Shown: piece after piece, positions 8,601 through 48,626 of the stretch
How the letters are laid out: each line of letters begins with the position of its first letter
Numbering within the stretch: the stretch's first letter is position 1
DNA from: Ascidiella aspersa
Taxonomy: Eukaryota
Length of the DNA stretch: 64,000 nucleotides
Direction of reading: 5' to 3'
NCBI GenBank assembly: GCA_963924565.1
Contig: OZ004607.1
Span: 11,718,001 to 11,782,000, forward strand
Made by a program: the position numbers and the translations under genes
Notes under the pieces: model-generated
The model's input: only the letters and a program-made list of their open reading frames with translations
Told to the model about the DNA's origin: nothing
The model's database searches: none

Positions 8601-11600
8601 AAAATGTCTGGCGTACCTTTCCAGACAAATAGTTGCTGTGGGTTTAACGAAGTAAAAACGCTACAAAAAATCAAAGCAATGCACCTTAGTTAGCGTACAA
8701 TCTGGTAAAAAACGAAAAAACACCAACAATAAAGCAAATAATGGAAGTAGGCAGATATCGTACCTTCCTAAACACAAGGACGGCGTCTTTCACGTTGGCG
8801 ATGAGCGGTTTGGTGAGGTTCCGGGCGAGGATCGGGTAACGGCTGACGAAATCGTGGAGCACGCATTGTTGCATCTTGCTATCCCGCCTGCTCATGTAGT
8901 CGTCCAGCGCGCTCGCGTACATCGCGCAAACACGCTCCACGTCCACGGCGCCTGTCTCGCAACTGGGGGGATAGAGTAGGGATGTGCATAAACAAAATGT
9001 GTCCAGTATCATAACTTAATGCTTCATCAGTAAGTATTTTAACGACAAGACGAGGCCTCCACGACCTTTAAACTGCGAGTAAGAGGTTGAACGATTCTTT
9101 AAAGAGCGACTGGGATTCGACTGGTCGGCTAACTACAGTGAGGGGCTAATCCAAATGCTCCCCAAGTAAAAACGGCAAAAGCATTCAACGTATTTGTAAG
9201 TATTATTATCGCAAGAGGTTTTGATCACACTGTGATTATCACAGTGTATATTCGGTTATCGTGAATATAGTATGTTCTTAACAGCTACATTCTTCTTTGT
9301 TTGCAATACAAAAAAGTCAGTAGCTTATAGTTTCATGCAACATGTAACACTTTAACGTTGCTCATTTCGCTTTCTTTTCCCATATCAATAGACATCTTAG
9401 CCTTAAAAAAACAGTAAAATAACAGGTCTTACGTTTTCACTTTACAGGTAATTTGGGCGGCGGTTTATTTTATTTTTATAATTTAAAACAGGTTTTACAT
9501 AATGGCCATCCTGCAACTCAATCTAGCGTCCTTGGTTTCAATGTGTATACAAAGAGATTTTGAGCTTTAGGCGATAAAGCTTACAAGAAACAGTGGCCAG
9601 AGACTAAGCGGCAAAACATGTGTAATAAATTTTACACTGACATCGAGTAATATTTGGGTTGATGAAGTGGTGCCGGATTTCTTCACATAACCAATGTGAA
9701 AAGAAGTCTGGCATACCAAATAATACAGGGTCGGTTTTACTGCGGAATGAGGCGCGAGCCGGTTTTGTCTGCTTTCTATCGCTGTTGAATATAACCACTG
9801 AACTCGGTGCGGTAAAATCAAACAAGAGAAAGGCTTGGATCAGTGTTTCTCAAACTTTTCAGCTTGCGATACACTTAGACTTGGGACGATCAAAAAAAAA
9901 GATAGGCGGCGCACTTTTTTAAGAATAATACACAACCTTGACAATAGTCCTTAATACACGGCAAGCTTATAGATGAATACCATAGTATTGCATACATAGT
10001 TTTTAAAATAAATATAGTTTACATTTAAGCCTCACATGCTTACTTGTGGCTAGTGAGTAATATGAATGGTTTATATGAAAATCTTTGGATACACACCAGT
10101 GTGCCGTTGCACACAGTTCGACAATCACTGGCTAAGATAAAGCGATGGGAACACACGATAAGAAATGTAAAGTATCAACTTTTAATGCAGAATAGTTTGA
10201 ATTTTGTAAGGCTGTCATTAGGACCAACGACATAATGAGTAAGATATTAAATCGTCTGAATACGGCCCAAACATGTCAGAATAAGTCCTAATTTTAACGA
10301 AGTAAGGTCTAAATCGACAAAATAACGCCTGAAACTGTAGGGAGGCGGTATGGGACACCTGTCTGACATCGAACGTTTGGGTGTCGAAGCTTGGGGGTCC
10401 CAGTTTGAACTGCGCCGTTAAGGTTAACGTTGTTTTGGCACGAAATTGTTTGCCCCTGTATGGGGTTATGGGCAGGTAACGAATGATGAGATAGGAAATT
10501 TCGTGAGAGTTGAAGTTATTGGGGGAGTTAGTGATGTTAGGACTAGGATTTTGGGTCAGGTAAAAGCTGTATAGGCCTTATTCTGGCTGTTTAGGATTTA
10601 ATCCGGCCGGTCTAAGACTTATTCCAATCAAGAGGTTTTCACGACTATTATGTATTGGTCCTATTTTGGTCTATTTCCGAATGTTGTTAAGAGGTCATTG
10701 ACGCTTACCCTTCCTGCGTGGATGGCTGGCCTGCCAGCACCCTCAGCAGCAACATGCAGCAGTGAGACGAGAGCTGGGAGAGAAAAACGCCGCCGTTGGC
10801 GCGCTCGCACCTGCGCAGTATCGCCTCCATGTCGTCGTGGCAACCACTGATCTGCGCAGCATCCAACGTGCGCGGGTATCCCTTCATCTTGCACAGCTTA
10901 ACCCTGGGTGTGAAACAAATTGTCAGTCAGTTTTTTTTAGGTTTTGGAGGTTTGATCCGATTTATGCTAATGGAAAAAATTATCCTGATTGATATCTTCA
11001 TATTTTAACGAAAAACCTTTTTATGACACAGCTTCTGAGAGCGTTGTCTGAACTAAAGTGTTCTACACCGCATTTTTTAGTGAACAATTTCATAGTGATT
11101 TTTGATAACTAATCCATCGTAATTCTATAAATGATTTAAAAGAACAAACAATAAAAAACACAAAAGCTCGCCGTGTCGTATTCTCAGTGCACAACAACAA
11201 AAGCCTTATGGGCGTTTAAATATAACCGCATGAACTAGATGACTTGCAACCACCACTTTCGACATCACGGCAGAAGCGCTGTTGTGACGTTTTTACGCCT
11301 AGTAGATAAGCCGTGCAACAATAATAAGCAATGCAGATGACTTTTCAGTTGCAAATACTCTTTCGCCATGTTGTGTACAATGTATATAACCAGGTTTAAC
11401 ACAACTTGAGAAAATGTGTGTCGACTGGTTTCCTCAGCGATTGGCAAAAAACCTCCGATTACGGTTAAAAGAAATGGCTCTTTACCTATGCATTTACTCC
11501 GAGAAAATTTTACAATTTTATGAGAAATTTTTGCAACGATATTATATGCTTCGTTTGACTGCCAAAAAGCAAAAAAGTGTGTTTTGCTTAATAAAATAAA

Positions 11601-14600
11601 AATCCGTGACCATCCCGTGAGACTCTACAGAACTTCGGACTCGCGTGAATCCTTATAAGGGTTTCCAGGTTCTTCAGATTTCAAAGTTCCGGCTAAAAAA
11701 ATTCTTTGCTGAAAATGCAAGTCGAAGGTCAAAGCTCAACGTTTACTTAAACAGATTTTATTTAAACAAGCATATCTTTGGGCAAACCGTACGTCTTTAG
11801 GGTAAGATGGCCGACAAAATCGGGTTAACGTGGTGATCCAAAGGTCAAAAGTGTAACGTATGGTAAATCGGGATGCATATTTTATTTTTTTGAGTAGAAG
11901 GTTTGGCTGTTAAAGCAAACTCGCGTGAGCACTTGCTCTATTTCAAACAGTAGTCTGTTCATACCCAGTTTAGGACAAAAGACTCTACTTTATTTTCGAA
12001 TGCGCTCGCACAAATCAGAAAACTCATATCATCTTCATTTACTATTTGATTGTACAAAAAGTGCTGTCGAGATTTCTTATTCATTGAAGGCATATTTGCC
12101 AGGATTTAGGTTTAGTGTCACAATAGCATATATTTTTGGTTTCTTGATTGACAAAAAGAACTGTCTTAATGGGTCATATAACAATAACTTAAGTCATTAA
12201 CACTTATAGCTTTAAAAACTTTTGTATTTTACCGCGAAATCGTCAAATTGTTTTCTTCTGAGACATCCTAAAAGTGCTCTAAGCTGTCTGGCAACCCTGA
12301 TCCTTATCAAAGAAACTGACAAGAAACCGCAAGTGGCGGGCAGAAGCTGATGGAAAGCAGACACAGGCTGAGAAGAAAGGAGAAAACATAAACCCTCCTG
12401 TCTTTCATATATAACTTTTTACAGAGACTGGCTTATTTAATGTCGCGTCGTTTAAGGGTCGGAAAATGGGCCATTTCAATAGAGTGATTTAGCATACAAA
12501 TAATTGAAGGCGCTGAAATGAGGACTGCGTTGGCGTGGACTGACCAAGTGTACTGTGGTCTGTGACCAGTAAAACACGGGCGAGAGGCGTGAGAAAAGAC
12601 CAGATTCGAGGCCAAGTACTTCCTCTGCTGGGACAAGAAATTCGTTGGAATCTCGAGGCGGTTTAGCACAGCTTAAACGCTGATATGGTTTCAGGGGGTT
12701 CGAGTGTGTTTGAGTGGTATGCTAGTGCGCGTAGTAAGTGGGGTAAGTGGGACGAGCGCGTGCATAAATAATTCACCGCTTAGTTGCCGGTCTGAAGAGA
12801 TTTGCGACCAAACTATGCGCGAAGGCATACTTCAAGCGCTGGCGGAAACTTTAAGGCAGGTGTGAAGCAATGTAGGGCGAATTTTACGGAAATGGTGTAG
12901 GTGAAATGTAAACCACAGGCAACCGCAAGTAAGTTTAGATAAATAATCACAGAGTCTATGTTAAGAAAAAATAGTCCCTCAACTCAAACCTGGAACAGTT
13001 TTTGTCCCAAACTTCTAGCAACAACAAATAATCGAAACCATATTAAAACTTTCGAGTGTTCTCCAAAACCCGTAACCAGGTGCCATGCAAAACTCAGCCT
13101 GTGTCAGTTTGTCGACTTTTTATTTGGGCTGGGGGCGTCTACGTTTTCAGTTCACGTGCAAGGTCTACTGGCAATGCATTGTGCGGTCACTTCAGTGGCA
13201 TTGTGACGTCATATAGGCGCGGGGAAACGAGAAGGCAAGGGCTGGTGTAATGCCAACACGAAGAGAAATCCTATTGATTTGCCAGAGTCAGATAAAAGTG
13301 CTTGGAGAGTTAGAACAGGGCCATTAGTGGGATGCATGTTTGTACAGCATTGTCAGGCCGAATTGTTTAGTTGTGTGGAGATGCAAGTTGTGTTACCGAA
13401 ACAGGGGTGTTTAGCTAACGCTTTTTAGACAACTATTCTCAAGAACCAGTTTGCTGTCTATAGTATATTATATAGAACACAAATATTTGTCATTCCTTAA
13501 TAAATAAGCGTCAATAATAATACGATGTTTCGGCGACGCGTCGTGGTTAAGTAACGTTGGTTTGAAAGGCATGGGTGTAATTCAATGCCCTCCATCAACA
13601 TATATTTTGTATTAAAACATAGAAAACCGGAAGGGCAGATGCCATTTTATTGCGAAATGGCGGGAGTCAGTTTTACGTTTTATCACCGAGAAAATATTTC
13701 GAAAAGCTTGGAAGCCCAGCTCAATTTAACCACGTGACGCGGTAAAATGTTAAGAGTCCGTGAATTTAGCTGGAACGGCGAGTTATGTCAATATTGTTTT
13801 CCACCGACAGTTTGGAGAGGCCTGTAAACTTTTTAACGGTCTCTCTGGCATTTATCTCCAGAAGCTTGTAAATCCTGCCTCAGAATCGTTAAAACCCAAC
13901 CGAGCGATTTAATTAGTAAGATTTTTGGATGATTCAAACGATAGAAGATATTTTATAGGGAACAAGTAGTGTGAGGTTAATATGGTCAATATAACATAGA
14001 TTACGACATATTCTAGTGCAAAAATCAGATATCGAGCGTAAATAAAGTCCTTTGTACGCTTAAAAGGCGAATTAGGTTTCTACCATTCGTCAAACGATCA
14101 ATAGTGTGTGCTAACCTGTCCGCATAACTCACCACAAAAAGGAGGACGGATTTAGAGAAAACGGCACTTTAATCTGTCGTGTGTAACTGATTTTCGAACG
14201 TCAGCGGCAGGTAAATTATTGTAGGCATTGGAATGCCGTGAGTGGACGTTCGGCTATTTGCGCGTGCAAACACCTGGCCTTTTCACGGCTCCAACCGCTC
14301 GCTAATTAAGCTGCGCGAAGCGAAGTGCCACGCTATGTGGCAAGGCTAAGCGCGCAACGGCATTGCGCGCGCACCCAATCAACTAATGGCCCAGCAACGT
14401 ACAGGCTTTATCGCAGGGATCTATCGCTTGGGTACGGGAGGGACGCTACCGAAGCCTTGTTAAACGTAGTAGGCAAACAGTGGGATAATCCTCGGCGATA
14501 AAATTCAACTGAAATGCGGCACAGAACTTTTTTTATAGATATCTTTACCTTGTAATTGTTTACATACGCGGTGGTAAGGCAGTGTTAGACAGACAGGCAG

Positions 14601-17600
14601 AAATCCGCTCACAAAGGGTTCACATTCCATTGAGATGTAGCTTATTAGTTGAATTTGCATAGTTTTAGGGGCAATTAATTTCCACACGACAATCGCCGTA
14701 AGTTATATCCAGTTAGCTATACTGCTCTAAAACGTATTTTTCCTTAATAAAATAACCCCCCAAACAAAATCGGTTAGCTTGGAAAAATGTTACCATTGTA
14801 CAGTGGCGAGCTGTAAATATCTCAATTGGATCACGTTTAGACACGTACAAGGTTTAAAACCAGCACTACATCATGCTAGTTTCGAATAGGCCTCCTTCCA
14901 AAGAAAGTTCCCTTTGCCGCGCCCTTTCTGTTCCCGCTGAGCAGCAATATTAACATGTGGGAAATCGCAGTCGGCAAAAGGCGCGGTTCATGGTCGTGTG
15001 GCGTGACATCGGGCCTTTTGTGCGCACTGAGCAATTAACCCAGTTGGTCGAGCCATAAAATCCACAGGCCACTCGGACTGTTGGTTTGGACGGTGGCTGC
15101 CTTAAAGACGCTCGGCCCTTGTTTACACAGGCTCCGAAAAAAAGGCCGGCAGTAGCTTTTTTACTTTTCTTAGGTGCATATTTTTAACCCGTTTCGTGAC
15201 CTTTTTATTTTGTCCCGCCATTATTTTTCGTCGAACACGTTCGGTGCTGTTTTTCGCACCTTCTCGCGTAAACAACGCGGGAAAAAAGGAGCCGGCTTCT
15301 TGCTAAAAAGGCCTTGTAAGCTGGCCGATTGCCAAACACAACAAGAGCGCGATAAAGCCAACCCAGCCGCCTTGGGGAGCAATCGGGTCGCTTAGATTCG
15401 CCGAAAAGCGCAGGCACCACAATAGAAGGCTATATATATATCGCTGCCAGGGCCGAAGAGCGATCGACTTTAGATTGGGGTCGACACAGGGCGGAGCTCA
15501 TAGTTAGCAAGAGAGAAGTAGTTAAACAGTGGATTCGGAGGGCAGGGCGTTTCTAGAAGTTTTTGTGGAAGGATTTTGCCAAGCTGAGACACGAATCTTG
15601 AGGAACTGGGCAAGGTGCCGCCTGTGAGATTTGGTGTCTGCCCTTCGCAATAAACGCGAAAAAGCTTAAAAATGCATATTTGAGTAAAGTTACAGTGCTT
15701 TTACAGGTCTTGGGCGTAGATTGACAACAATGCGAGGTTTAGACTTCTGCGTTTTGCATAGAGTTACACAAGCTTTATAAAAGTTCGACAAAACTTTGTT
15801 AAAATATCTGCAAACGTGACCCACGTGCAACGTAATGTAAAAATTGTTTAGACATACGGCTTTATGAACTATATAATGGACGCTTCTCGATACCGATAAT
15901 TGTAATGGCTCAAATACTTGATGCCAATAATAACTTCTTTTTGGGTAAATATTGATTTTTTAGAGAAGGGATATTAAAAAAATAAAACAAACATTAAAAT
16001 CACGTCAATTTTAGATATGAAGTGGGTGGAAACGCCCTTTGTCAATTCCATCAATCAAGTATATAACGCTAACATCGCACATTAACAAACCATTAGCAAA
16101 AACATTAAATTTCGTTCGAAATGTCGTGAGTGGCCCGACGCCGCTGACGAAAAACAATAAAACAGCGAACTGGGTTCGTGACAAAAAAATGTGCGCAGAT
16201 TTCGCACAATCGTCGTTGTTATCGTCACAGAATTGCGTATAAATGTCACTGCCAGACGCCCGGTATCGCCATTTCGAGTTTAGCGTTTGTCCTATTCGTA
16301 AAACAAAATTGACAGGCAATAGGAAAAAGTATGGCATGAAATCGATATAGGGCGATATTTTATCAACGCATAATTTTTAATTAAGGTGAAAGTCAGTTGT
16401 CTACGTATTTCCTGTCGAAATGTGTCAGTTTGTCAGGTGATTTAAAATTAGAAAGCGCACTGTGCAACAAAAATTACAAAAAGTGTGCAATATGCTTTAA
16501 CTTATCTATTTCGGTTGGAGAGAAAATGTTGCGTTTTTTTGGTAATAAATATATGCAATTTGGTCATTTGCAAAGAGAGTGAGTTGACCAAGTACCTCTG
16601 AGACATATAAAAAGTAAACTTACATCAAATAATGCGGTAATACATACTACTAACAATTAGTCACCACCAACTTAAAAAAAATATTACTACCGGTATATAG
16701 AAAGGATATAACAGGAACACATTTAACCTAACTGACATTAAAGTATCTTTAAAATTCCTAAAAACCCATGTGTAGACGGGCAAGGGCAAATAGTCTTATA
16801 CATAATTAAAACGAATCGACCAATTTTATCCAGATATAACCAGCAAGTTTCCAATTGTAGTTAACAGGACTAGAAATAATGGAAGTCAACAGAGTTTTTT
16901 TTTTATTATTCATGCTGCTTGTTAACATCACAGAGGCGTGATGCAGCCACGATTGTGCTCATGTTAAATTTGTAAACGGCGTACTGCGACTGAATGCAGC
17001 AGTAAATAAAAACATGAGAGTATACGCTGTCTATAGAACATGTTAATACAGTATTCAATAAAATTATGGTGTTTGTTGTCTCAAAATGGCGAAATAATCT
17101 AAATATTTTATACATGCGAGCCTACGGTCGACGTTGTGTCCTCAATTATCATTTTACGGGTTTCGTACGCTTATTATATACACGAAGTAAAATATTCTCA
17201 AGTTGGGGCAATAGACCAATAGTTTAATTTTTATTAAAGTTACAAACAGCGTCGGCAGTCATAAAAGGGTGCAGTTTATTTTAGTTGTTTTAACAACACT
17301 GGACTGCGTTGTGTGCGGCGTACATAATCACAATCAGCAGTCAATTAGTTGGTTTAACAATCAAAGGTTATACTATTTTGTTTATTTTTCACTTTACCCA
17401 GAGCATATATACTTGTAGAACATAATGACAGTATCCTCGCTGCAGTTAAACTTTGAGATTTCATTTGGGGTTTTCGGTAAGCGGATAGATATATAAAACA
17501 ATCTAACAATTATGCTGCTGTCAGGTTTAGCGAACAATGTCCAGAGCACTGTACAAAGAAATTCAGACATGCTCAAACTCTGGTGTATTACTGACAAGGA

Positions 17601-20600
17601 GCAACAGCTGGAAAAGTATTTGCAGCGGCAAGATCTGAAAAGGGTGCGACAACTACTCAGCAAAGGTAGGCTGCGTTAGACCACGGTTTTTCGTTCATAG
17701 TCATCGTACAGGGCACGATCTGCGAATCGCCGTAATTGCACAAAAAATCAATCTAGTATATTCGGCAAATAAGTAACTTCCTTTTTAGTAACCCTTTGGG
17801 ATGTCAGCTATCAGAGTTACATTAACACTTTAACACCGAATTTTCTCTCTTTCCGCCATGAGTCTAAAGTTGGAGTAAAGGCAAAAACTCATATATTGTT
17901 GTTTTTCGCACAGGCGCCAACCCGAATGGCTACAGCCAGAAAGCCAAATGTTCGTTCCTGTGTATGGCGATCACGCAGCGCAACGAAGCACTGGTAAGTA
18001 CAATTATTTTTTCGACGTTTTTCAATTGACTTTTCTCCAAGTTTATGACTAAAAGTACAAAACCCTTTTAGACAAATATCAGAATAGGCTGGTAAGCCTC
18101 ATTTTAGGCAGATATACTTTTGTACTTCTGGTTAATGCATTTACGGCTTGTTGATTAATAAAGCAAAGCAGACTAGGTTAATGCGAATTCTGTGACTTTA
18201 TAATTGAGTTTGGGATCCAACGTTTAGAGCAGTGGTTCCCAAACTTTTTTGATTCGCGGCATACTAACTAATCTTAACTATTTCGCGGCACATTTTTAAC
18301 AGAACAACAATAGAGTAATTTTACAATCTCCCTTGACACAGTACAAACCATATGTAAATGTCTCAAAAAACACACAGTTTGGAAATCACTGGTTTAGAGT
18401 CATCATCCAACACAGTAAAACAACGTAGAGAATGATATTTTACTTCAGGTTAAAGAAATCGTAATTTAAAATGTTTAAAGGCAGAATAGCTACATGTGCT
18501 TTAACAATAATCGGGGTAATCTTTCTAAGGTCCGGATGATGCTAAAGGCCGGATCATCGACCAACCAAACCACTTGGCCCTCAGAAGAGGAGAGTCCCTC
18601 GCATTTGGACGAATATCCCCTCCATATTGCGGCGAAGCAAGGAAGCCTCGGCATAATCAAGGTAAAGCAATCAAATAAGAAATTAATAGCCAGATTTCCA
18701 CAAACCGAAACTGCATCTCGTATGTACAGGCATATAGATTTAAAAAACACTATACAAAAACGACAGTATCTATCGTTACTTATAATGACATCAATCGTAA
18801 CACATAAAGATATATCGTATAAATTTAAATCGCATCACGCGTCAGGCAACATCAAAATTGTAATAATAAACTGGAAACCCAAATAAAACAGTTTAGGATG
18901 TCGCAGGTTGTATCATATTAGTTTCCAGTCCATTTTACTTTACGTTGGGCAGACAGAGCGAGCCACAATTTAAAGCAAACTATTTCAGGCTTTACTTGAA
19001 CACGGAGCTAATGTTGACATCGGGCAGGACAGCAAGCTTGGAACGCCTTTGCACCAAGCGACGAGGCAAGGACATAAAGAGGTGAGATTTTAATTTAACA
19101 AAGTTAAAGTGGGTTGTTAGTTACATTAAGGTGTCGATATTTTTTTCAACCAAAAAGTACAAGTTACTTTGCGGCAAATTTAATTTAATTCGATGAATTT
19201 TCTTTTTAATTTAATAAGATTTGGTTATTCCAAAACTCGTAATCTCCGTTTACCTAGTTTGAAAAAGCTTAACCTGTAATGTAATGTTTTTGTCCTGCAT
19301 AAGCTGTTTACAAAATTAACTTAGTTAAGTACAGTTATATGCTGTTAAATGTGTTTAAAATGCGAACGCCTATATGCTGTTAAATGTGTTTAAAATGCGA
19401 ACTAATTAGTTTGTTTAATTAGTCAGCATACGTTGGTGACCAGATTACAACAGAACTCGACAACACTAGCACAGTTAAACCCTTCAAACCTAAATCGAAT
19501 AGCGTTGCTCTATGGCCAGATTGTTTCGTTTACGTTAAGCGTATAGTGATGACGCAATCGCAAATCGCCACTTCCTTTGTTTCTCCACGAATAGTAAACC
19601 ATATTAGGCCGACCTCGGCTCTTAGTAGCGACGCTCGCACATCAAAAATCGCGACGCGAACATGATCGATATTATCGAAGTCTGTTCGTCAAACTAATTG
19701 CTTTTAAACCATGTAGGGTGACGCTTTTCTAAAGGCAACTACATCAATTTTTGCGATTTAGAATTTAACTGGGGCACGAATGTGATGTTTTATAGTGGTA
19801 TTAGTGGGTTGTAAAAATTGTGACTGTCGCAAAGGAAAAATAAGTATATTAAATTTACTTTTTATAATGGTTGTTTTGATAAAGCACTTACAATCTGAAC
19901 CAAAACATAATAATTTGGTGTTTAAATGAGTGAAAAAAGTAACGTGTTTTGGTGCAGAAACGTGCTAACCTTTTATTGTGTGCTATGCTAAATATTCATG
20001 TAAAGACATTCTAGCTTCTCAACATGCCGGAGCTTCGCCAAACATATGCCAAAAACGCAACTTTAATTTCCCCCATTTTTACGCAAACAATCTCAAGTTA
20101 AGCAACAATACAAGCACAGGTGAAATACTCAATCTGTAACCTTCATCAAAACGTTTTGACATCACAGTTTTGCGCAAAATATCACTATAAATGGGCTCTG
20201 CAAACAGGTGACGTCACTGCTGCTGGCTCACGGTGCCGACCTGATTGCGATCGACCGGCAGCTGGACACGCCGCTGCACAAGGCTGCCGCTTTTGGCTAC
20301 AACGCGGTGGTGAACGTTCTCCTTAACAAAGGAGCCCCGGTCAACGCGCGCAACTACGCAATGGCAACGCCGCTGCATCACGCGGCCAAGGCCGGCGCCC
20401 TTTTGGTGGTCCAGACTCTGCTGGAACGCGGCGCCGACCCGGCCGCCCTGGACTCGGCGGGAAATTCCCCGGCCAACGCGGCAGGCAGCGGTGAAGTGCG
20501 CGACTTGATCGCGGCGTGTAACATCCGCATTGAGATCAAGGAGCGTGCGGTGAGAAGCGATGCGGAAAAGGCGTGGTTTAAGGAGTACGAGCCGCTGCCT

Positions 20601-23600
20601 ACGTGGAGCTATCGGGAGCGCGAGGTCGTTGCTTCAAGCGGGAACAGCAAAAGCGCGTCGGATCGGCGGGAAAACGGGGTTGAAAATCCCGCGTACGCGT
20701 CTGGCGACGTGGAGAGCGCACACAACAGTCTTAAGGAGAACCACAGCAACACGCACCGGCTGCTGAAGCGACTTGGCAGCTTTTCGAAAGCCATACGCAG
20801 CGCCACGGAAGCAAAGCCAGGCGCGTCGGAGGTTCAACCGAGTCAGAAGGATGGTAGGACGTGGGAGGACCTCACCTCCTCCGACCTGGACACGATTTCG
20901 GAAGACCTGGAGCAAAAACGACGCGACCCTCAGGAAAGACCCGTTCCGTTGCCGAGGACGCGCATTAAGGAGCAGAGTCCGGCTCCAGGAAGCTGGAGGA
21001 GGCCGAACGGACACGGAGGAGCCAAGGAGGACCCGGCCTACTGGCAAAAGAGGAGGGGAAGATCCCTGCATCAACCGAAGAGGAAGAGACACACGTCACG
21101 AGCGAGGAGGGGAGTGACGCGAACGCAGAGCGAGCTTACGGCGCGCCCGGTTTAACTTAATGTTTTCTATTTGTATATTTTTCGTCGTTTGTAGTCTATT
21201 ATCTTTTATGTGTTTGCAATAGAGCGCTGCAGTGTAAGGCCGCTCGTGGCTTTGAGTTCCGTTTGCCTTTGAACAAATTCATCCTGCAGAAATTGAATTT
21301 ATTGTGTTCAACGTCTAAACTCGAAATAATTCACGTTGATTTAATGATTGCAGTAATTTGCAAATTTGACACAATAAATGTTCATTGGAATAGTTTTTTT
21401 TTATTCGGAAAAATTTAGCAAATGGTTTGATTTTTTGTACTGTAGGTCTTGTACTCAAAAGAACCAGGATTTATGTCTTGTATAGTTTCTCGTTTCCACA
21501 TGACGAATATGTTTATTTTATTTATGTCAATTTGTGTATCCACAAAGAAAGACTGGTGATTAACGATACATATACACTGAAGAAACAAAACTTTTTCCCC
21601 CTAATAACCATAAATAATTCAGATACGTGCACCATACATAGAAGTTTTAAAAACAAATTTCGCCTAATGCATATATTGTGTTGTTATGGCAAAAAAAAAA
21701 TATTTTAAGGGTATTTTCCAAAATTGATTTATTATTGACATTTAAACATTGTTACCTATTTCGTAAAGCTTAGTTTTATTAAACGCCTTACTTCAGCCTC
21801 AAGCCAACGTGTTCAAATATAAAATGCTAATAAAATTGCACACCATGCTATTACAGTAGACACATCTGTGTTGGTTTGGAATACAACTGTACAGCAAACA
21901 TATTAAAGAGAAGACAACAACAATTATGAGTCTGGCAAAATTAGTTTAAGCCTTAGAACGTATTCCCGAAAAAAGTATTCCCCGAAGATGCACAACTGCT
22001 TAAATTTCTAGCTATAGCGCAAAATTAGCTTCGTGAATTCGAAATGAACTCTTGGTAAATTGTTAAACTAGTTCCACTAAAATTACATTCATTGCAAATC
22101 CATAAATATTAATCCTTACAAGAGAAAGAAAAACTAGGAAAGAAATATAGGAATTCAAAATGTCATTTGTTTGAAATTTGGTAAACTGTTACACTAGTCA
22201 AAAGTGTAACTGTTACACTATTTAAAACTAAATTAAATATTGCTCACCTAACGTTTCGCAAATTACAAAGCTTGTTTGGCGTTGAGCCCCAAACTAATGG
22301 CGCGCCATCCAAAACAACGCCACAAAGGAAAAAAATGAAAGAACATACCTTAAAACGACTGTGGCGCGCTCGGCCAACACCGACTTGTCGGGGTCACGTG
22401 ACGCCAGTTCGACCACGTCCAGCAGGGGGCGCACGAGGGCGAGCACGAGCGGGTTCTTGTCGTGCTGACGTTGCACGAAAGACTCGAGAAGCTCGACGCA
22501 GCGCAGCTGGAAGTGTGTGACGTGCAACTTGTTGTTCTTCTTGGTCGCCTTTTTCTTTTTCTGCGAGAGAGCGAATTGAATGAGGTTTTTAAGTATGCTG
22601 TACTGACAGAGGCAAAACAACGGGGAAGCGCAGCTACGGAGGATTTAGAAAGAAGGTTTTGGACCTTAGAACTTCCACAATCGGGGTCGACAGACCCCTT
22701 GGATCAGTGAGAAACTTTGGCAAGCGCAAGGTCTAACTCTAGCTGGGACAAAATAGTCTCGTTAGGTTTAACTACTTAGTTTGCTTAAGTGCTGGTTTAA
22801 ATAGTAGAGCAATTTTATTACCCACTTGAAACCCTTAGAGGAAATTTTCGACTTTTAAGAGGAAATTTTTTTCCATGGAGAAATTGGGGAGGAAAAATCG
22901 ATAAAAAAACTTATTTATTCGGTTGTATGCAATAAAACGCTTGTTTAACTTCATTGATTGGTATTATAAAGAGCCTATTAGGCATCTACAATAGGTCTAT
23001 TGTAAAATTGAGCAGCCTTTCATTATATCAAGAAAACAAAGGGTCCATCGTTGTAAGCATACGCTTGACAACCACTGATTCAGTTAAATATGTGACTAGA
23101 ATCTTCCAGATGTTAAGGATCGCTTGGCACGAGCCGCTAAAGGTCGAAAACAACCAGAACATCCTAGCTTAAAGGTGCCTCGCACAAGTCCAAAAGGAAT
23201 TCACTAATTCAAATAAATATTAATTTTTTAATATTTTCTAGCTATTATTTTATGCAAAACAATGAGGAATGGAAGGTGGGGGCATGCAAAGATAAACAAT
23301 GAATAAGCAGAACTCTTAAAATTGTTACTACTTTGTTTGCTCAATTTAGAAAAAAAGGTTCCAGTAAAGATGCATATAAGTTTGATTACAGAAACCAGTA
23401 AACATGTTTACAGTGGTCAGCGGTATATATTAAACGGTAGCCACAAAACGGATACAAAATAACTCTAAAGAACTATAAACATTTAATAACCTGGTTAATT
23501 GTCAGTTTTTAAATCCGAGTTAAAATTGTTGTTAAATACAGATAACACAATTTAAAAGTACGCTTAAATCGTGAATCTGTTCACCTTTCTCTGTTGAAAT

Positions 23601-26600: not shown

Positions 26601-29600
26601 ACTTACATCTAAGATGAGCTGAACTCCGGTCTTGGTCAAGTGACACGAAATGAGACGGAAGACTTGGTTCGCGATGATTCTGACGCTACGGGACTCTTGA
26701 GACAACATTCCCAGCAAGATTTCGACTATCACCTGAAGGCAATTTAATGTCAAACATAATTTTACACATAGTTGCCACTAAACTACTAACTGGATAGACC
26801 CGGATTGCTATGCTACACTTATCTCTAATAGGTAAAAAATAATGACAAATGGGTAAAAATAGGTGTTTTAGCAAAACAACAATCATAATAGGCTTTACAT
26901 GGTTTGGATTTAGATAAACTTGGGTTATGTAGGTTGTTTAATAGAAAAATCCAATTATTTTTAATGTGACATAAGTAAGTCTGTTTTATGTTGTTATTAA
27001 AGTGACTTCTGGGGTGTATTTTTCAAAAATAACGGAAAAGCAATACAGCACAGTTTTTATTATGGGATATACACACCAGCCGCTAAAAACGTTTCAAAAT
27101 TATATTTGACCTTAATTTCGGTAATAGGACATATCTATCGACTTGTTCCTATCAATAAATTGCCGAAAAGTCGATAACATCGCGATATATTACCCCCTAT
27201 TTATAAAGGTTAGCGCGTAAAGGACAAACCTGTCATATTAACCAACAGTCAAAACAGAGGGGCGCGTTGGATTCCTCGAGTTCTATTTGTTACATCGCTG
27301 TACAACCTGCGGGTGGTTTGAAAGCATTACACTAGCTAGCAAAACTAACCTCGACCCAATGAGGCGCGTCGGAATCTTCGTCGGCCGGCTTGGCGCTTTT
27401 GCCTTTGCGGAACCTCTCCTTGATGATTTCGCGCAGGTCGCCGGCAACGTCGATGGCTGACTTCTGCACGTCGGCGTCGGTCGAGAGCAGCTGGAGAGCG
27501 ACGTGCAACAGGAGAAGCTGCAGAGCTGTGGCTTCCGACGACTTGAAGTTTTTCGTGTCTGCGCGGTTATTTGTCAAATTATATAAATTAACCCAGTGTT
27601 TCTACTACACATGGGTCGCGACCCACGATTAGATCGACGACTGCAGTGGTTCTCATGGTTTTAAGAGTTTGGTTCTGAGCAAGATGTCTGCGAAATTCAA
27701 CAGCAATACGAAAGCGTGGCTCATGTTAATTAATTTGAATCTAGTTATGCTATTGTCTTAGTCAAACATATATGCACACTAAGTGCTTTAACTGATGTTC
27801 AGTGAAATGTCGCCAAGTGTCCCGCAACAAATATTTAATCAAAGTTCCGTTCAACACCAGTCAAAATTACTGGTTGGACTTGGCTTTTATTTTATGAAAT
27901 TTATTATCCACAACCACCAGTTTGAATGCCTTATCGTGTTTTTCCTCATTTATTGCTGTTATAAGCTAAAAATACCCTAAACAAATTGATTTCGAATAGT
28001 TTTAGAAATTTTAAATAGTTTAGAAATAGTTTTCGAATAGTTTAGAAATGCCGGGTGGAAACGGTTTATTGGGAAAAACAACAACCAACAATATAGTAGG
28101 AATCTTCACTTTGATTTATACACTTGTCTAATGCAGAACGACAACGATTGGCAATTGTCACAATCGCTTCAAACTTATGTCCTACTACGGTACCCCGGTA
28201 TATTACATAACGTCAGTTTCTAAGCAAGGTTATTTTTTCGAGAAACCGCCGATGCGATGGCGAGAGAAGTTCACCTTTCTTTAGCGTTGACATTTTCCCG
28301 ATCGCCGACATGGCTTCTTTCCAGGCGGCCTTAACCTCGTCAGTGAAATCGACAGTGGTTGTCATGCTAACGTCGCTTTCCTCCAGTAGCGCGTCTGCGT
28401 AGCGAACGACCATGTGTAGCCAGAAGTCGCCGTTCGACATCACGCCAGGAATTCGCCGCTGGTTCGTTTCCTGCAAAATTCCTTTGTTGTCGATATATTC
28501 TAAAATCTGAACGAAGGAAATCACCACAAACCTTTTTGTTCTCGCGGCCCCTTTTAATTTTTTGGTAACCTGCGCGACCGCCCAATTTTAGTGTATGATA
28601 CATAAACCAGAGTCAATACAAAACACATATAAAAATTGGGGAAAAATCTGACGGATTGTATCAAAATTTGGCCAAAAATTAAGTCCGGATTTAAGTATGC
28701 ACAACAAGGTAAGGTTACGGTTTAAGCGTTCATCCATGTTTATTAGACATTGTTTGATTGAGCCAACGCTTTAGTTAAGTGTAATGGTGACGTCAAAATC
28801 ACGACTGTTTAACTGCAGCAAAACCCACATAAACACAATTATTAGACTGTCGTTTGCTTTTGCTTCATCATAATGTTAAATTTTAGTTCATATTGCTTAT
28901 TTGTTATGAAGTTTTTCTTTATCAAATACTATACACGGGGACCCCCTAGCCAAACCTTTGTGGCGCCTTTAAGGGCCCAACCCCCAGGTTGGAAACCACC
29001 TAACAATGGCAATCATCACAAAAATCATGAACACGTTTACGGGGCTATAACTAAGCGTTACACATCGCTGAAAAAAGATAACATATTTCACTAGAACATT
29101 TAGAGGTTCAATTGTTATTGGTTACATTTATCACTACCATTGAAATATGCAATATAATTTTTAAGAGCGTAATAGGTTTTATAGGAATGGTTTTACATAA
29201 TCAATCTGCTTCTACTTCTTTCAGTGGCGACAAAAGAATATAACTGAACAAAGTTGAAAAAAAGAACGCTTTTTCATACAACACATCAAAAAGAGGGCTT
29301 ACTGTTAACTATCTAACGTCTCCTTATGTTATTATAAACTGTGTCATATAAGCATAAGCAGTGTTTCTCAAGTATTATATATCAGCAACTTTGCTGTCTT
29401 ACATTCTTTTCGGAGTCCACTGGAAGCATGTTGTTCAGCCACGACATAAGGGTGTTAAAATTTGAACGCACTTTGCTCTGCGTTGATTCTGAAAGCTCCA
29501 TAAAATGAGTCGGCACCATAGCGACTTCTTCAATGTTCGATGATTTACTGGTTCCAGTCACTGTTCACAAACAGTGAGTTTAAGTCTTGCCTTCATTTAC

Positions 29601-32600
29601 CGAATATTTTTGTGTGGAAAATGACCAAACAATGTAGTTTATGAGTTTGTTTTCATATAAGAATCTTACCATCAAAGTGGCCATGGAAAAACATAAACTT
29701 AAGAGTATTTGATATCCAGTCTTCATTCCGTGGAAGATGGATCATCCTAACAAGGTGAGCAAGCTGTGTGCTGCTCCATCTTGAAAAGCAAATAAAAAAT
29801 CATATCAAAACAATACCAGACTCAATCAAATTAAGGTGAGACTTGTCGGATAAAATCTTGTTTTCTTGTTTGCTTAATTTTTATGTTCATTGGTTGTTTA
29901 TATTTTATTTAAATAGCAACTAGGAAGTTTGCAGGCATCTTACAAATATCATTTGACATAAGCTGTATTTTAAAGGGTGACTTTGCACCGAAGCACTGTT
30001 CGGTGGCAACGTTTATGCAAGTAAAAAAGTCTACTTACTCGCGAGCAACATCCAAGTTAAGTTCCTTGATTCCAGAATCGCCGACCGATCCCTCTAGGAA
30101 CAGTTTCTTGAGCCAGCTGATGTACTTAAGCAGGGCAGGCAGTTTAAGGTGGCCAACCACCGAACTAACTATAGCAGAATGTGTGACGCTATCAAGATAG
30201 ATTCCACCAGGACTAAAAAGATTAATTTTAAGTATGTTAATCAAACGCCCTGAAAACCCAAAGAATATAGAAGCAAATTTTTCCATTAAATATATTGTTT
30301 TCTTATGAATTTTTCGTATTCATCATCATTACTTTTCCATGCAACCATAAAATTTCCAAAAAAGTATACATTTATAAACAAATCATGTTTTTTTTCAGTA
30401 TATATTAATATATTGTATTTAAACTATCATTTAAACAGGCTATTTTACACTACTAACTTGTACTAAGTACTTATTTTTTTAGTCTCAACTCAAACATTTT
30501 TACCTCCTGTATTGAGGCCCTTGCAGTATATATTTATGCAATTTATACATAATGCACTAAAAACAGAAAACAAGATTAACATATTACCTCTTCAATAACT
30601 GAAACAAAACCTTGTATTGCACATTAGGGGACATATTTGCATCTTTCATTTTTTCAGAAAGCTCTTGAGGCAGTTGTTGTTTGGAATATTTATGAAAGTA
30701 ATGATCTTTATTCAGTAGAGAGGTGTAGATTTGAACCAATATATCTTTACTCCAAATGATAGGTACCTGGAAAAGGGAGATTGTAGGTGGATCTTATGAA
30801 CCTAGCCAATAAATAGAGAAACAACCAGACATTTTTCAAAAACATTGTTTAAAAATTAATGTAAGTTTATAATAAAAAGTGTGATTTTACTTAAAAAAAT
30901 GTATACACATATATATATACATTTCATAATTAAACATATTGAAAACATAATTATATATATACATATATATAAATATTGAAAAAAAAATTTAATAATATGA
31001 TTACTAATTTTATATTAGTATTTCAAGTTCTACATTACACAATTTGTTTATCTTTTTTGGAGAAATATTAGTACTTACATTATCTTGGCTTAAATGGGGT
31101 AACAGAAAAACGGCAAGTTTAATTGCCAGACATTTTCGTTCAGGTGATGAATTAATTAGTGTTGGCTGCAGAAACTCATGCCAAAACTTTGCTAAGGACT
31201 CATGGCCTTGAGTGGCTATCTGCAACATGATGTCAAGGGCAAATGTGTTAACTTCAGGCTGGCAAGGAGTGGTTTCAGCAATAATTCTGGCCAACTGTTT
31301 AAAACAGTGCGTTCCTGTAAAAGCAGATTTATTACATATTGGAATGGGTCAAAGTTTGTCAAAGCTTAAAATCACTGACCTATGATTTCACTCTTCTTTG
31401 ATTTCTTGGGTATCCAGTTGTTTGTTTTGAGAAAAGTCTTGCCACATGCTTCAGGATGATGCTTTGAACAAACCAACAGCAAATGTAACATGTCTGGAGT
31501 GCAGCTATCCCATCCATCCTCAAAGAAAGATGACAGTGATGGCCACATTGCATCTTGAAAAGTTGCAGACTTTACCTTGAGGAGATAAAAAAACATTGCT
31601 TATTTTCTTAGCCTATAGAGTAGAAGATTTCTAGCAATTTTTTTCTTTTAAAAAAGTTTTGAAGCAATGCATTGTTTTAGTGGGTTTTACTAATTGATAA
31701 AGTAACACCTAAAATTAATTAAATTTAAATATATACCTTTTTGGTCAATTCACAAAGTCCTTGAATAGCCAAGCTGTGAACAAAAACCTTAGCTTTGGCA
31801 AGACTAAGGAACTCTTTTGTAACATGATTTATAAGTCGACCACTATGACTCTCCGCTTCAAATAACCTGTTGCTTTCTATAAGTGTCAGCAAGCAAAACG
31901 CCCTTCCGAACAACATTTCTCTGTCCTCCTAAAAAGCAATATAAAAATTGTAAATTCCTACTAATTTTAGGGGGTAGGGTAATTCCATGTCAAAGCAACC
32001 AGAAAAAACGAAAATTTTAACCACTACACCTTGGATTTCTTTTATATTTGCCACACTTGTGGAGTTTTTCAGCCAGATCATTAAAAACTTTATTTTGTCA
32101 AAATTGGTTGAGGGGTAAAAAAGTTATGTTATTTTAAAATTTGGGGTAATTTGTGCTCGGTCAACCATGAAATTCATTGATTTTCAGCTATGTCAACTTC
32201 AACATCTTGTATCTTTGTGATGGATTGAAGTTTGTGTTTGAAATAAAGTTTATTTAAAAGATAATAATTTAAGGTCCTATTGCTTAGATTTTTATGACAT
32301 TTAAGGCTGAAGGTCAGAGGTCATGCAGAGGTTGAATATTTGTCTTTTTTGAAATCAGTGAAGCGGAACCCAATTTAAACGCGGAATATCTCAAAAGCGT
32401 TGACTTAAATTTTTGTGTTAAGGTGTCTATGGAGAGCTTATTCCAAGTACTTTCATTTAAACCAGGTTTCATTGCTCCTTTCAAGGGATACCACTGTCAT
32501 ATGAGCTGTGTAACATGACCGTCTAAAAAATAGCATTTTGGTTCGAATTACAAATTTATTTCAATACAAAGTCTGAATTACATTATTTTTTCAACTACTA

Positions 32601-35600
32601 AACTGTGACATTTGTTTTCAAATAAATTTATTTTCACAATATATATTTTATTCTTAAAATGTTTATGGAAGTATACTCCAAATACTTTTTTAAAACATGG
32701 GTGGATAAAGTGCATTATATCATGTTTTTTTTATTACAAATTTTTTTTTTATTACAAATGGAAATTTCTGTAGTTTTGTGAATTGTTTATCTAAAATTGT
32801 CAAAAAAGTACTCATCCAGTTATTAAAAATCCAGCTAATGAAGAGTTTAGTGCTCGCAGTTACACACTAATGAGGATTCTGACTGCCATAGATTAACTAT
32901 GGTAAAAGAATGTGGGTATATTCTATTTGCTGAACTACCTATAAAAGATAAATCGTTGCTATTAATAAGAGCCTTATTATAAGAAAAATTTGAAGGATAA
33001 AATTTGCTTGTATCACCCTGCTTTATTCTTAAACACAAGATACAACTCCTTTAATGTAGACAGTATTAACCTCTTCTGTTCATATACTTTAGTTGCAACA
33101 CTAACTTTGTCGCTAATTCCTGGCATTATACGTGTGTTGTCATTGACACAGATTCAGCACAGCTTCTTTCTATGTTTCCTGCTGGCAATGGTTTTCTCTT
33201 TTGGTGTACATTTTTTTTGGACTTTCGTAAATTTTAAAAAATTCTTTGCTGTACGCATCATATTTTCTGGCACTCCAAAAAATTCTGAAACTTTTTTTTC
33301 TAGACCAAGAGTCTGGAGAAAAGGTTAGAAGTTGAACTTTTGCTGAGTAGGATTCTTCTGTAACCAGTTTGGTTTGAATTTTATCCATTAGTTTGTCAAA
33401 ATCTTTGGCTTTTTGCATATTTACAATAATTTTGCCTTCTCTTCTCTATTAGTAGTTTCCAAGTGTGGAAGAGCAGTTGAAAACCTCTTCTTCAAATCTT
33501 GATAAATAGAGCCCAATTTCCTTTTTCTATATACAATCTTGCTGGATGATGGTAGGCTATGAAGTTTTAATGGGATTGACTAATCACATGTAGGCTTGTG
33601 TTAAGCTGACTTGTGGAAAGATATAAATCGCTGTTGTCACTAGTGTTAGAGGCAGCTACACTAACATTCGTATCAATTGACGATTCCGATGAAATGCTTT
33701 CATTTTCACTACAAATTAATTTTAGTTTTGTTTTGCAATTACTAGAATTTTTTGTCCAGGGATAAGCTTAAAATTATTTTGCTTAGTTTTTTGTGAAAAA
33801 TCAAGTTGTATTTTTTGTAATTTAGCCATAATATTTGTTTTATGTGATTTAAATGGATTGCAGCAGACTTTTTGAGGCAGATCATATTTATTTAGGAAAA
33901 AGCATGGTGATACAAGCAAATTTTCTTTTTGCAATAAGTTTGCTCTTATTAATAACAACAATTTAGATAGTTTAGCAAATAGAATAGGCCGATATTCTTT
34001 TACCATAGTTAGTTTATGGCAGTCAGAATCCACATTAGTGTGTAAACCAACACTACAAGCACTAAACTCTTCATTAACTGGGTTTTCAATAACTTGATGA
34101 GTACTTTTTCGATAATTTTAGATAAACAATTCACAAAACTACAGAATTTATCAACTTGTAATGAATCTGAAATAAAAAAATATGATACAATGGACTTTAT
34201 CTACCCATGTTTTAAAAAAGTATTTGGAGGAGTATATTCTTCATAAACATTTTAAAAACAAAAAATATGTTGAGAAATTAATTTATTTAAAAAACAAATG
34301 TCACAGTTTAGTAGTTGAAAAAATAATGTAATTCAGACTTTGTATTGAAATAAATTTGTAATTCGAACCAAAATGCTATTTTTTAGACGGTCATGTTACA
34401 CAGCTCATATGACAGTGGTATCCCTTGAAAGGAGCAATGAAACCTGGTTTAAATGAAAGTACTTGGAATAAGCTCTCCATAGACACCTTACACAAAAAAA
34501 TTTAAGTCAACGCTTTTGAGATATTTCGCTTCTAAATTGGGTTCCGCTTCACTGATTTTTAAAATACACATTAGTTTGACCTGCACTTGACCTCTGACCT
34601 TAGAGCTGAAACAACAAAACAATGTAACAAATCTAACATTAGGTTATTATCTTTTAAATAAACTTAATTTTAAAGTAAAACTCCAATCCATTAAAAAGTT
34701 ATGCTAGATTGAACTTTGCATGAGTAAAAATCAATGAGTTTCACGGTTCAGCGAGCACAAAATGCCCAATATTTCAAAACAGCATAACTTTTTAACCCCT
34801 CAAAAAATTTTGGTAAAATAAAGTTTATTGTAATCAGGATGGAAAACTCTACACATGTACAAAATTTGAGCAATTTTGAAAACATATGGGTTAAATAGGT
34901 TGGTTGCTTTGACATGGAATTACCCGGTAGTAGAACATAATCCTTTCTATCATATAAAAAAAATTAACAGCCTTACACTTTTTGTATTGCCCAGCTGAAG
35001 TTTTTCTGTCATTAGTTCCAAAATGTGATTGGCATTGACTAGCTTTGAAGTTGTTTGACTGAGTAAAGCGGACAGAGCAGTGGAGAAGCCAACTCTGGCA
35101 AACTTTCTGTTGGATCCCAACCCACCAACCAGACGGCCAATCGTATACTTGAAATCTGGACATAATTCTTCAGGATCTTCTGCCTATTATCAAAACGTGT
35201 TGTATTAGATTTAGATAAAGACAATGTGTAAACCTATAAATGAGCCCGTCTGGAAATTAATGGATGTGACCGGGTGCAACTAAGGTCAAAAGTGCAGCCC
35301 ACAACTATAAATCATGTGAAAATCAGGTGCATATTTAATATTTGGGGTGCAGGAGTAGTCTGTTGAAAAAAATGCAGGTCCACTTGTCTTACTTTTCAGA
35401 GTAGTAAATGGGAATCTTTAAACAATTAAATGAAAAAATTACATCATTTAAGGTAAAAAACACTTCACATTGAACTATTTGTTTTTTTATGATGAAATTT
35501 TCCTCTCTTTCAGTGATAAAAATATGAATATACTAATCATAAATGTTTGAATCATGTCTAATTCTGAAATTACATTTACACTGGAATGTATAACTAACAA

Positions 35601-35946: not shown

Positions 35947-37094
35947 GTTTAAGCGATTTTATGTCGCTATATCATGAATAAAGAAATATTATAAAAAAGC
36001 TTACCCCTAGTAAACAATTGCAACGCACATGTTTTACTATCCAGTGGTGAATTCTCACCAATACGTTGCTATTTTCGACGCCATTTTGTGCTAATAATAA
36101 CTTTAAATTTTTTTAATATTTCAGTTCGTTGCGATTTTATTAAAACTTTTATAATTATTAGAGATCATCAGTATGCATTATTCGTCCAATTAATTCATTC
36201 AATAACTAATTTTATCACAAACAAATACGTTTTATTTTTAATCGAAGTGAAATTAAAAACTGCAGCAACATACACAAACAAAACAACAACATAGTATAGA
36301 ATTTTAAAGATGTCCGTTATGCTCAACGTCACCTTAGCTAATAATGTATTTCCATACAAATTATCAAATTCAATTATAAATTTAACAATTTCAATGCGGC
36401 ATGATTTTGTTCAATTTTTTGTGTTAGTTTAGCGATACAAAATATAGAGTTTTAAACAAAAAAAACGCACTTTTAAGAAGTACCCTACAAAAAGTCTTTT
36501 GTAAATGTGTACATATGAAGTTCTTTACGCTAACCAGTTTGAGTTCTCAGATACTACTGAGTAAATCTCAGATACTACTGAGTAAATCTCCTTTCACCCG
36601 AAAGTGATAAATTTGTATTTTTTACTTTTTAAATTACCTGGATTGTTTTGTGTGCCGCTAAACCATGTAATTTTCCCAAATGAATTATTTGTATTACAAA
36701 TATAGATATGCAGCTTAGCATGTATATTTGCACTATCCCTAGGGTAATTGATAACATTACACTATTTACTGACCACCTTGTCTTGCGGTTAGATTGTAAG
36801 GTTATAATTGTATGATTTTGTACAAGTCTACTGCAAGTTTGTTTTTATTTTTTTCCACAGGCCCAAAAAGTTAAGAATCACTGTTTTATGCATTACTAAC
36901 TCATAGTCACACTTAGCAGACTGAATAATTTTGTAATATAATTTATTTTACAGGAAAATTTTAGCTAGCTTGATTCAATCGCTGTTGCCAACTTCAGAAA
37001 TATGATCATTCATCAACATGTGTAGCTGCAATCATACACTTCAAGCAAATACGCCCTTACAATAGTCCAACCACCAATTAACTTTAGTTTAAGC
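35947..37094. promoter_or_regulatory. Shared head-to-head promoter and 5' UTR region of MYBBP1A and PCNX4
   Basis: Divergent start codons are 1148 nt apart. YY1-type CGCCATTTT at 36079-36087. Strong + strand acceptors end at 36860 and 36953, upstream of the PCNX4 ATG. Confidence 0.65.

Positions 37095-48626
<11,532 letters not shown>

Follow-up and report, generated by a model that had tools for sequence, protein, structure and literature searches.

Can an intron that consists almost wholly of a transposon be tolerated because the insert folds itself away, or is the fold a feature that the transposon brought with it? Intron 2 of MYBBP1A/Pol5, a gene that acts in ribosome construction, raises this question in a 64,000-nucleotide window of the Ascidiella aspersa genome (assembly GCA_963924565.1, contig OZ004607.1, positions 11,718,001 to 11,782,000 of the forward strand), to which all coordinates below refer. 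A first-pass annotation, made from the sequence alone, had read the intron as roughly 97% foldback transposon and had proposed that a giant hairpin restores a spacing of ~95 nt between the splice sites. MYBBP1A is an essential gene; a literature search found no paper on its lethality.

A transposon fills most of MYBBP1A intron 2

The annotated intron length of 3,048 nt was confirmed, with GT..AG ends on the minus strand and eight RNA reads (seven distinct starts) across the exon 2–3 joint at 31928/34977 (Table 1). The element and one copy of its target-site duplication account for 2,953 nt, or 96.9% of the intron, leaving the 51 nt on the donor side and 48 nt on the acceptor side that had been claimed. 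The donor, polypyrimidine tract and acceptor are all intact and lie outside the element, and the gene is single-copy. The neighbouring introns, which the first-pass annotation had put at 65–160 nt, do not all fall in that range: they measure 640, 161, 65 and 312 nt, and one of 11,445 nt is predicted by homology in the same gene.

The arms have the annotated length of ~1.05 kb, but they are just 81% identical overall. Identity passes from 25 perfect terminal bases to 64–80% over ~350 bp, rises to 95–100% in a core that is likely a recent conversion tract, and then settles at 79–86%. The inverted copy of parent 5' region 550–1059, which one arm carries in addition to its terminal repeat, takes in the opening ~83 codons of the transposase reading frame. 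Eleven AATAAA motifs occur on the host-sense strand, all of them within the arms, and their absence from the loop does not clearly exceed what chance would give.

Table 1. Features of the window around MYBBP1A intron 2.
Feature	Position	Strand	Details
Non-autonomous Sola2 element	31977..34925	-	2,949 bp with GGG at both termini; the remnant of the transposase has the sense of the host gene
Target-site duplication GGTA, acceptor side	31973..31976	+	One copy only at empty site
Target-site duplication GGTA, donor side	34926..34929	+	From sequence
Arm: parent 3' terminal repeat (~550 bp, 91% to L040) plus inverted parent 5' region 550–1059	31977..33033	+	
Arm: parent 5' terminal repeat, 5' leader and transposase start	33891..34925	-	
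Arm core, 95–100% identical	32363..32640	.	Spans inner edge of parent's terminal repeat
Loop, 857 nt	33034..33890	-	0 of 28 listed editing-type sites
Broken transposase remnant, codons 1–377 of parent's 877, three frames	33022..34117	-	tblastn; catalytic region absent
MYBBP1A/Pol5 intron 2	31929..34976	-	Filled 3,048 nt, empty 95 nt; GT..AG, RNA joint, empty allele
MYBBP1A exon 2	34977..35183	-	PF04931 positions 1–52; RNA joint
MYBBP1A exon 3	31737..31928	-	PF04931 positions 58–121; RNA joint
Predicted intron, same gene	10904..22348	-	11,445 nt, GT..AG, in frame, no long inverted repeat; homology only
19 A-to-G sites in family RNA	32103..32920	+	Reads from other copies
Partner arm: 6 A-to-G sites on plus-sense RNA, 3 on minus-sense RNA (34514, 34522, 34533)	33981..34776	.	

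The insertion is recent and polymorphic

The ancestral intron of ~95 nt that the first-pass annotation expected does exist. An empty site, with a joint that skips exactly 2,953 nt, was found in all three DNA data sets examined (two studies): five reads carry it in X10, and unbroken contigs at approximately single-copy depth carry it in X1 and X2, although contigs attest the presence of the empty allele and not the absence of the filled one. The window copy differs from another copy of its family at two positions in 2,948 nt. The insertion is polymorphic and very recent.

None of the pieces listed for X1, X2 and X10 holds the filled junction. An assembly artefact, in which the insertion at this locus is not real, would account for the lack of a read across that junction among those listed. 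We consider this highly improbable, since the empty site's four bases occur in exact duplicate, as in 17 of 17 two-ended relatives, and the copy has variants of its own, common to L042 only. The unlisted junction would also suit a mildly harmful insertion, one that slows splicing, provokes early polyadenylation or keeps edited pre-mRNA in the nucleus and survives as a rare allele beside the empty one, whose contigs are unbroken; the host gene is single-copy and the 11 AATAAA motifs lie on its sense strand. A neutral insertion of very recent date, however, would look equally rare, and the comparison covers three DNA data sets; we regard harm of this kind as unlikely.

The element belongs to a mobile Sola2 family

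The element is a DNA transposon of the Sola2 type, non-autonomous and present in 18 near-identical copies. The diagnostic junction was matched over the full length at 97–100% identity in 18 places, and 4-bp duplications flank 17 of 17 two-ended copies (20 loci examined). Both ends start with GGG, which fits the 5'-GRG termini that Bao et al. reportedly gave for Sola2 in 2009. The remnant in the window is 57–76% identical to codons 1–377 of the presumed parent, L040 (4,465 bp, with an 877-codon frame); it ends at codon 377, carries frameshifts and stops, and has no intact catalytic triad. In a comparison by eye, the motifs of the L040 frame agree with those of the Sola2 alignment given by PMC3627910 (supplement S10), and a 4-bp target-site duplication is a Sola2 feature (PMC3627910). 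Pfam gave no match to the L040-type transposase or its remnants, a protein search returned 952 relatives, mostly unnamed or labelled 'ARL14 effector' or 'Cc8L18.2-like', and Sola is not mentioned in PMC10045372.

The term foldback describes the shape of the element but not its family. Membership in Drosophila Foldback/Galileo was rejected on the 4-bp duplication and the Sola2-type transposase, as opposed to the P-type transposase and 7-bp duplications of Galileo. Arms built of internal tandem repeats, as in Foldback/Galileo, were likewise rejected, because the arms hold just two short repeats, of 16 and 18 bp, with two copies each. A Sola2 copy may have lost its catalytic half, with repair from the other end making an inverted copy of the 5' region and stretching the arms from ~550 to ~1,050 bp. 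An L040-type transposase would then have spread this master copy through the genome, although L040, the sole near-intact transposase found close to the family, is only 87.5% identical to the element.

A predicted stem in the intron and an A-to-G signature in family RNA

For intron 2, the predicted fold is a single long stem with 859 cross-arm pairs, whose closing pair (intron positions 52:3000) falls right on the two ends of the element. Its predicted stability is -0.43 kcal/mol per nt, compared with -0.19 without the distal arm, and its base is weak past the first 25–28 pairs.

Clusters of A-to-I editing on the arms had been proposed as a check of the hairpin, and RNA of the family does carry an A-to-I-type signature there. 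Over 31300–35300, A>G (50) and T>C (15) make up 70% of the 93 places with RNA changes, compared with 157 of 713 (22%) for the same classes among genomic copies and, across a longer span, 108 of 454 (24%) in DNA reads, and the A-to-G changes follow the RNA strand. The listed editing-type sites number 28, with 40 of the 93 places shown. None of these falls in the loop, all 25 on the plus strand fall inside the predicted stem, and 17 of the 28 lie in the extended part of the arm; they imply that arms of the element's family pair in cells. The base 5' of the 28 sites is T (19), A (7) or C (2) and never G, so that at the family level the sites prefer U/A and avoid G, as ADAR does. At 18 of the 28 the edited-type base is absent from every aligned copy and from the other arm, whereas at 10 an older copy or the opposite arm has the G. 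A_deamin genes are present at three loci. Positions 32303 (A>G), 32009, 32802, 33018, 33146, 34808, 34819, 34863 and 34878 were discarded as genomic variants of other copies.

These RNA data come from raw run X11 (6% of the run, 2–8 starts per site, set against DNA from other animals). The animal that supplied the RNA departs from the window sequence at two exonic positions, 31845 (9 of 9 reads) and 35165 (6 of 6), and likely did not carry the filled haplotype. On ADAR editing of ascidian transposons, the literature search gave general reviews only.

The hairpin is probably not needed for splicing

We think it probable that this is a recent, polymorphic Sola2 insertion in the middle of a 95-nt MYBBP1A intron, that its arms likely pair up and likely undergo ADAR editing, as seems to be the case for its sister copies, and that the ordinary spliceosome likely removes the intron with no need of the hairpin. 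Host transcription across any copy would yield an intramolecular hairpin for ADAR to edit. With the donor, branch region and acceptor untouched here, the intron would merely be longer, and the hairpin would be a by-product of transposon structure that predates the insertion and is no adaptation to the site. The predicted 11,445-nt intron would serve as an internal control for long-intron splicing, although it is predicted solely from homology, and a long intron of great age may possess adapted signals that are missing from one of 95 nt. Other points weigh against this reading: normal splicing of the filled allele is something we infer, because no read from a carrier was seen, and the editing signal comes from few molecules, with the 10 sites at which G occurs elsewhere.

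The alternative is that arm pairing restores the ~95-nt spacing or hides cryptic processing signals, so that the allele would otherwise mis-splice. Closure of the predicted stem at the very ends of the element, the gain in stability and the pairing implied by editing-type sites, including those in the extended part, all agree with it, as do the confinement of AATAAA to the arms and the shortness of the two next introns (161 and 65 nt). In the accessible text of PMC6239182, moreover, essential C. elegans genes show an enrichment of palindromic transposons, but most genes do not differ in expression between strains with and without such a transposon. The weak stem base, which editing would loosen further, also speaks against a need for pairing, as do the ~2 kb of transcription during which the first arm would stay unpaired and the AATAAA-free loop, which chance may explain. 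Three sister copies could be placed in introns, of ~0.86, 1.4 and 1.5 kb, which were already long; they were drawn from 17 sister copies by a Pfam scan of 290 flanking frames (two between exons of the same family, the third by reading frames), the other 14 being left unclassed. We therefore hold it unlikely that pairing is required. Overall, the first-pass reading is partly supported: a stem closing at the element's ends is indeed predicted, but tolerance through the hairpin is unsupported, given the young polymorphic allele, the splice signals outside the element and the 11.4-kb predicted intron without an inverted repeat.

The hairpin could instead act on the transposon itself, if the inverted 5' end of the transposase made each transcribed copy a source of dsRNA that silences autonomous Sola2. 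Heavy editing opposes RNAi and counts against this reading. The family has moved very recently, which means that the transposase was not shut off, and identity to L040 is just ~85–88% in the region concerned. In its favour, the parent 5' leader and first ~83 codons are present in both arms, which duplicates the 5' end of the transposase in inverted form, exact 21-mers of one arm recur in L040 (29 in the frame and 159 in the terminal repeat), and maize Mu killer shares the layout, as far as the available part of PMC3440606 describes it. We find such silencing improbable. We give little credence to a combined picture, in which a still-mobile Sola2 derivative folds out of the spliceosome's way by means of its extended arms, is tolerated even within an essential gene's 95-nt intron and, through the transposase start contained in that hairpin, also travels as a Mu-killer-like brake tuned by ADAR editing.

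Comparison with known systems

Sola2 elements are known already, as are the lengthening of arms through inverted copying and the presence of edited transposon hairpins within essential-gene introns. The parent transposase has the Sola2 motif series, including three Asp positions said to be catalytic. Shared with the Sola2 group of the Repbase Sola superfamily (Hydra Sola2-1/2/5_HM, aligned in PMC3627910, supplement S10) are the 4-bp duplications and the lack of a Pfam match, as reported for Sola. The window copy differs in having no catalytic half and in an inverted duplication of the transposase start that doubles arm length.

Mu killer is a single locus that silences its parent. In it, too, the 5' part of the transposase is present as an inverted duplication together with terminal repeats, and host-gene read-through into a long hairpin is described for it in the accessible part of PMC3440606. 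The element here is, in contrast, an 18-copy mobile family, 85–88% like its intact relative and with evidence of editing. Non-autonomous, foldback-like Galileo copies also recruited inverted sequence beside repeat 1 (TIR1-F1-F1-TIR2), and in Drosophila mojavensis their repeats are extended up to ~1.25 kb, according to the available text of PMC3573991; Galileo, however, is a P-superfamily element with 7-bp duplications, whereas the recruited part of this Sola2 element extends into the coding frame. Paired terminal repeats in RNA are shared with SOS splicing, for which 466-nt Tc3 repeats are A-to-I edited (accessible portion of PMC12779559), and which was rejected as a removal route here.

Another parallel is C. 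elegans, in which Reich and Bass describe palindromic transposons in structured, ADAR-edited introns of essential genes and propose that folding may draw the splice sites towards each other; their strain comparison gave no clear support for this idea (available text of PMC6239182). The predicted -0.43 kcal/mol per nt misses the -0.5 cut-off given there, and here one element makes up 97% of the intron. In A. aspersa, a housekeeping gene has one intron with segregating alleles of 95 nt and 3,048 nt, the insert is a self-contained hairpin, and sister copies appear folded and edited. This allele pair would allow a clean natural test of the question posed in PMC6239182, whether intronic hairpins aid splicing or ride as passengers. 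If pairing turned out to be required, DNA transposons could use long terminal repeats to cut their cost in genomes with compact introns.

A polymorphic insertion in MYBBP1A

MYBBP1A/Pol5 is an essential gene, and its intron 2 holds the 2,949-bp non-autonomous Sola2 element. The named homologs are Myb-binding protein 1A, with the top score from Ciona savignyi, which makes an ascidian host likely; exons on either side of the filled intron match consecutive portions of PF04931, and the MYBBP1A exon has one copy in the assembly. Eight stranded RNA reads with seven different starts cross the exon-exon joint over intron 2, and five cross that over the next intron (introns 1-5 measure 640, 3,048, 161, 65 and 312 nt, in order). 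Re-measurement of the sequence reproduced the figures of the first-pass annotation for the intron, the element and the intron remnants beside it.

The insertion is polymorphic. Five reads of DNA run X10 skip exactly 2,953 nt, and the empty site lies within single contigs of data sets X1 (911 nt, depth 94.8) and X2 (1,005 nt, depth 29), whose depths approximate that of the flanking single-copy sequence. The allele without the element was therefore present, with the same exact skip, in 3/3 DNA-type data sets from two studies, bearing out the predicted ancestral intron of ~95 nt. No filled junction was spanned among the pieces listed for the DNA data; the contigs show that the empty allele is present, not that the filled one is absent.

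Coordinates of the insertion, its genomic neighbourhood and its apparent parent (window positions unless a locus is named)
Feature	Position	Strand	Description
MYBBP1A intron 2	31929-34976	-	3,048 nt, GT..AG
Sola2 element	31977-34925		GGTA either side; 51 + 48 nt of intron left
Arms	31977-33033; 33891-34925		81% identity overall
Loop	33034-33890
Further MYBBP1A intron	10904-22348	-	11,445 nt, predicted by homology, in frame
Ankyrin-repeat gene	18479-21152	+	Opposite strand, within the predicted 11.4-kb intron
Repeats in other MYBBP1A introns	~24120-24510; 24990-25510; 28550-28930		High-copy, very high read depth
Repeat in final stretch ahead of the end of MYBBP1A exon 1	~35670-35780		High-copy, very high read depth
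Interval between head-to-head starts of MYBBP1A and a pecanex-family gene	35960-37030		~1 kb; PF05041 at 48297-48623
Major facilitator transporter frame	3449-4864	+	472 codons, single exon
Parent L040	L040 2768-7232 (G000:C6:1455967-1460431)		4,465 bp, same ends as element, 877-codon frame, 4-bp duplication

A young foldback family and its parent

Sola2 termini follow the rule GRG. An 18-base terminal motif of the element occurs 48 times in the genome, against 0 for the reversed control, and 17 of the 20 loci examined are two-ended, all 17 with a 4-bp duplication of varied sequence; such target duplications are a Sola2 feature according to PMC3627910. The diagnostic inner junction is found full length at 97-100% in 18 places including the window copy, from which the other 17 copies differ by 2-57 substitutions. 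Because the nearest copy, L042, has only 2 differences in 2,948 and shares five variants otherwise private to the window copy, the window insertion is very recent. The foldback shape is common to all young copies and is therefore older than this insertion.

Among 112 matches, L040 is the only near-intact close relative and is apparently an intact autonomous Sola2 element. A Pfam scan of its transposase frame gave no match; compared by eye, its motif series fits the Sola2 transposase alignment in part 1 of 2 of supplement S10 of PMC3627910. Its terminal repeats span only ~550 bp and are 80% alike. Segment 1 of the window element corresponds to L040's first 1,939 bases at 87.5% and holds a broken remnant of codons 1-377, segment 2 is an inverted copy of L040 positions 1059 to ~550, and segment 3 is the 3' repeat. 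Between the arms, the 25 terminal bases match perfectly, the next 350 bp at 64-80%, ~32363-32640 at 95-100% and the remainder at 79-86%. A near-identical inner and a ~75% alike outer terminal repeat are seen both here (32363-32640) and in L040 (~400-520 from each end), which suggests either repeated arm-to-arm conversion or a binding region.

Of the 17 sister copies, three could be assigned to an intron, one each in CCDC39, a Kelch gene and a kinase gene, the remaining 14 not being classed. Six copies (L039, L044, L037, L031, L034 and L035) sit inside or next to CCDC39, Kelch, CASK-like kinase, MRCK-like kinase, cullin and FAD-binding genes, some in the orientation of the host gene and others against it. 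A second Sola2 family, with open frames of 862, 862 and 634 codons, may be young too, since its scores are equal at three places. Miniature derivatives of ~370 bp that share these ends occur at three places ~74-79 kb apart (G000:C3:24937386, 25015944 and 25089913; L011-L016) and may belong to a tandem duplication.

A-to-G changes in family RNA

Changes of A-to-I type on the arms, a check proposed in the first-pass annotation, appear at family level, as 28 listed sites in reads from other copies. The data were 6% of RNA run X11, with 225 reads on 31300-35300; they represent few molecules, set against the assembly and separate DNA data sets, and the call is for the family. Among 93 changed places, 50 A>G and 15 T>C account for 70%, compared with 157/713 (22%) among genomic copies and 108/454 (24%) in DNA reads over 22000-36600. 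The site list covers 40 of the 93 places, 37 of them inside the element; nine of these were dropped as genomic variants of other copies.

Each of the 28 left reads as A-to-G on the strand of its RNA; plus-sense reads carry 25 of them and minus-sense reads three. For 18 of them neither any aligned copy nor the opposite arm has that base; for the other 10 it is found in one of the older copies or in the opposite arm. The 5' base is T at 19, A at seven, C at two and G at none (T against an arm background of 190/742; Fisher P = 5e-6, although the sites are not independent). The predicted stem contains every one of the 25 plus-sense sites (20 at A-U pairs, five at single mismatches), and the extended part of the arms holds 17 of the 28. 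None of the 28 listed lies in the loop, though reads cover both strands there, and intramolecular folding is therefore favoured over sense-antisense pairing. Deaminase-domain genes occur at three loci.

Loose ends and one insertion assign the reads to other copies, matching loci L051, L055 and L052. The RNA animal has two haplotypes at several exonic sites and, since it differs from the window at 31845 (9/9) and 35165 (6/6), likely lacks the filled allele.

Tolerance or masking of the insertion

The predicted fold of the intron (-1,299 kcal/mol, 859 cross-arm pairs) closes its stem at the first and last base of the element, and its energy per base goes from -0.43 for the full intron to -0.19 without the distal arm. 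The proposal that arm pairing in pre-mRNA masks the insertion from splicing by restoring ~95-nt spacing draws on this geometry, on the evidence for pairing and on 11 sense-strand AATAAA motifs, every one of them within an arm, but plain tolerance appears likelier. Donor, pyrimidine tract and acceptor are intact beyond the element borders and the bordering exons are of ordinary size; the predicted 11,445-nt intron has no inverted repeat, the element being the only one found in a search of window 1-37000; and the three placed sister copies occupy introns already ~0.86, 1.4 and 1.5 kb when empty. The insertion itself is real and well supported as a young and polymorphic Sola2 copy with long arms, in a family that shows editing.

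Comparison with known systems

The masking idea is already in print: PMC6239182 describes enrichment of palindromic transposons in C. elegans essential genes and suggests that they draw splice sites close to each other by folding, but comparing strains lent this no clear support. The arms of the window element share the layout of the TIR1-F1-F1-TIR2 extension described for Galileo in PMC3573991. By analogy, each transcribed copy might act like maize Mu killer (PMC3440606), because both arms carry the transposase start; 29 21-mers match the L040 frame exactly. The family's recent spread speaks against strong silencing.
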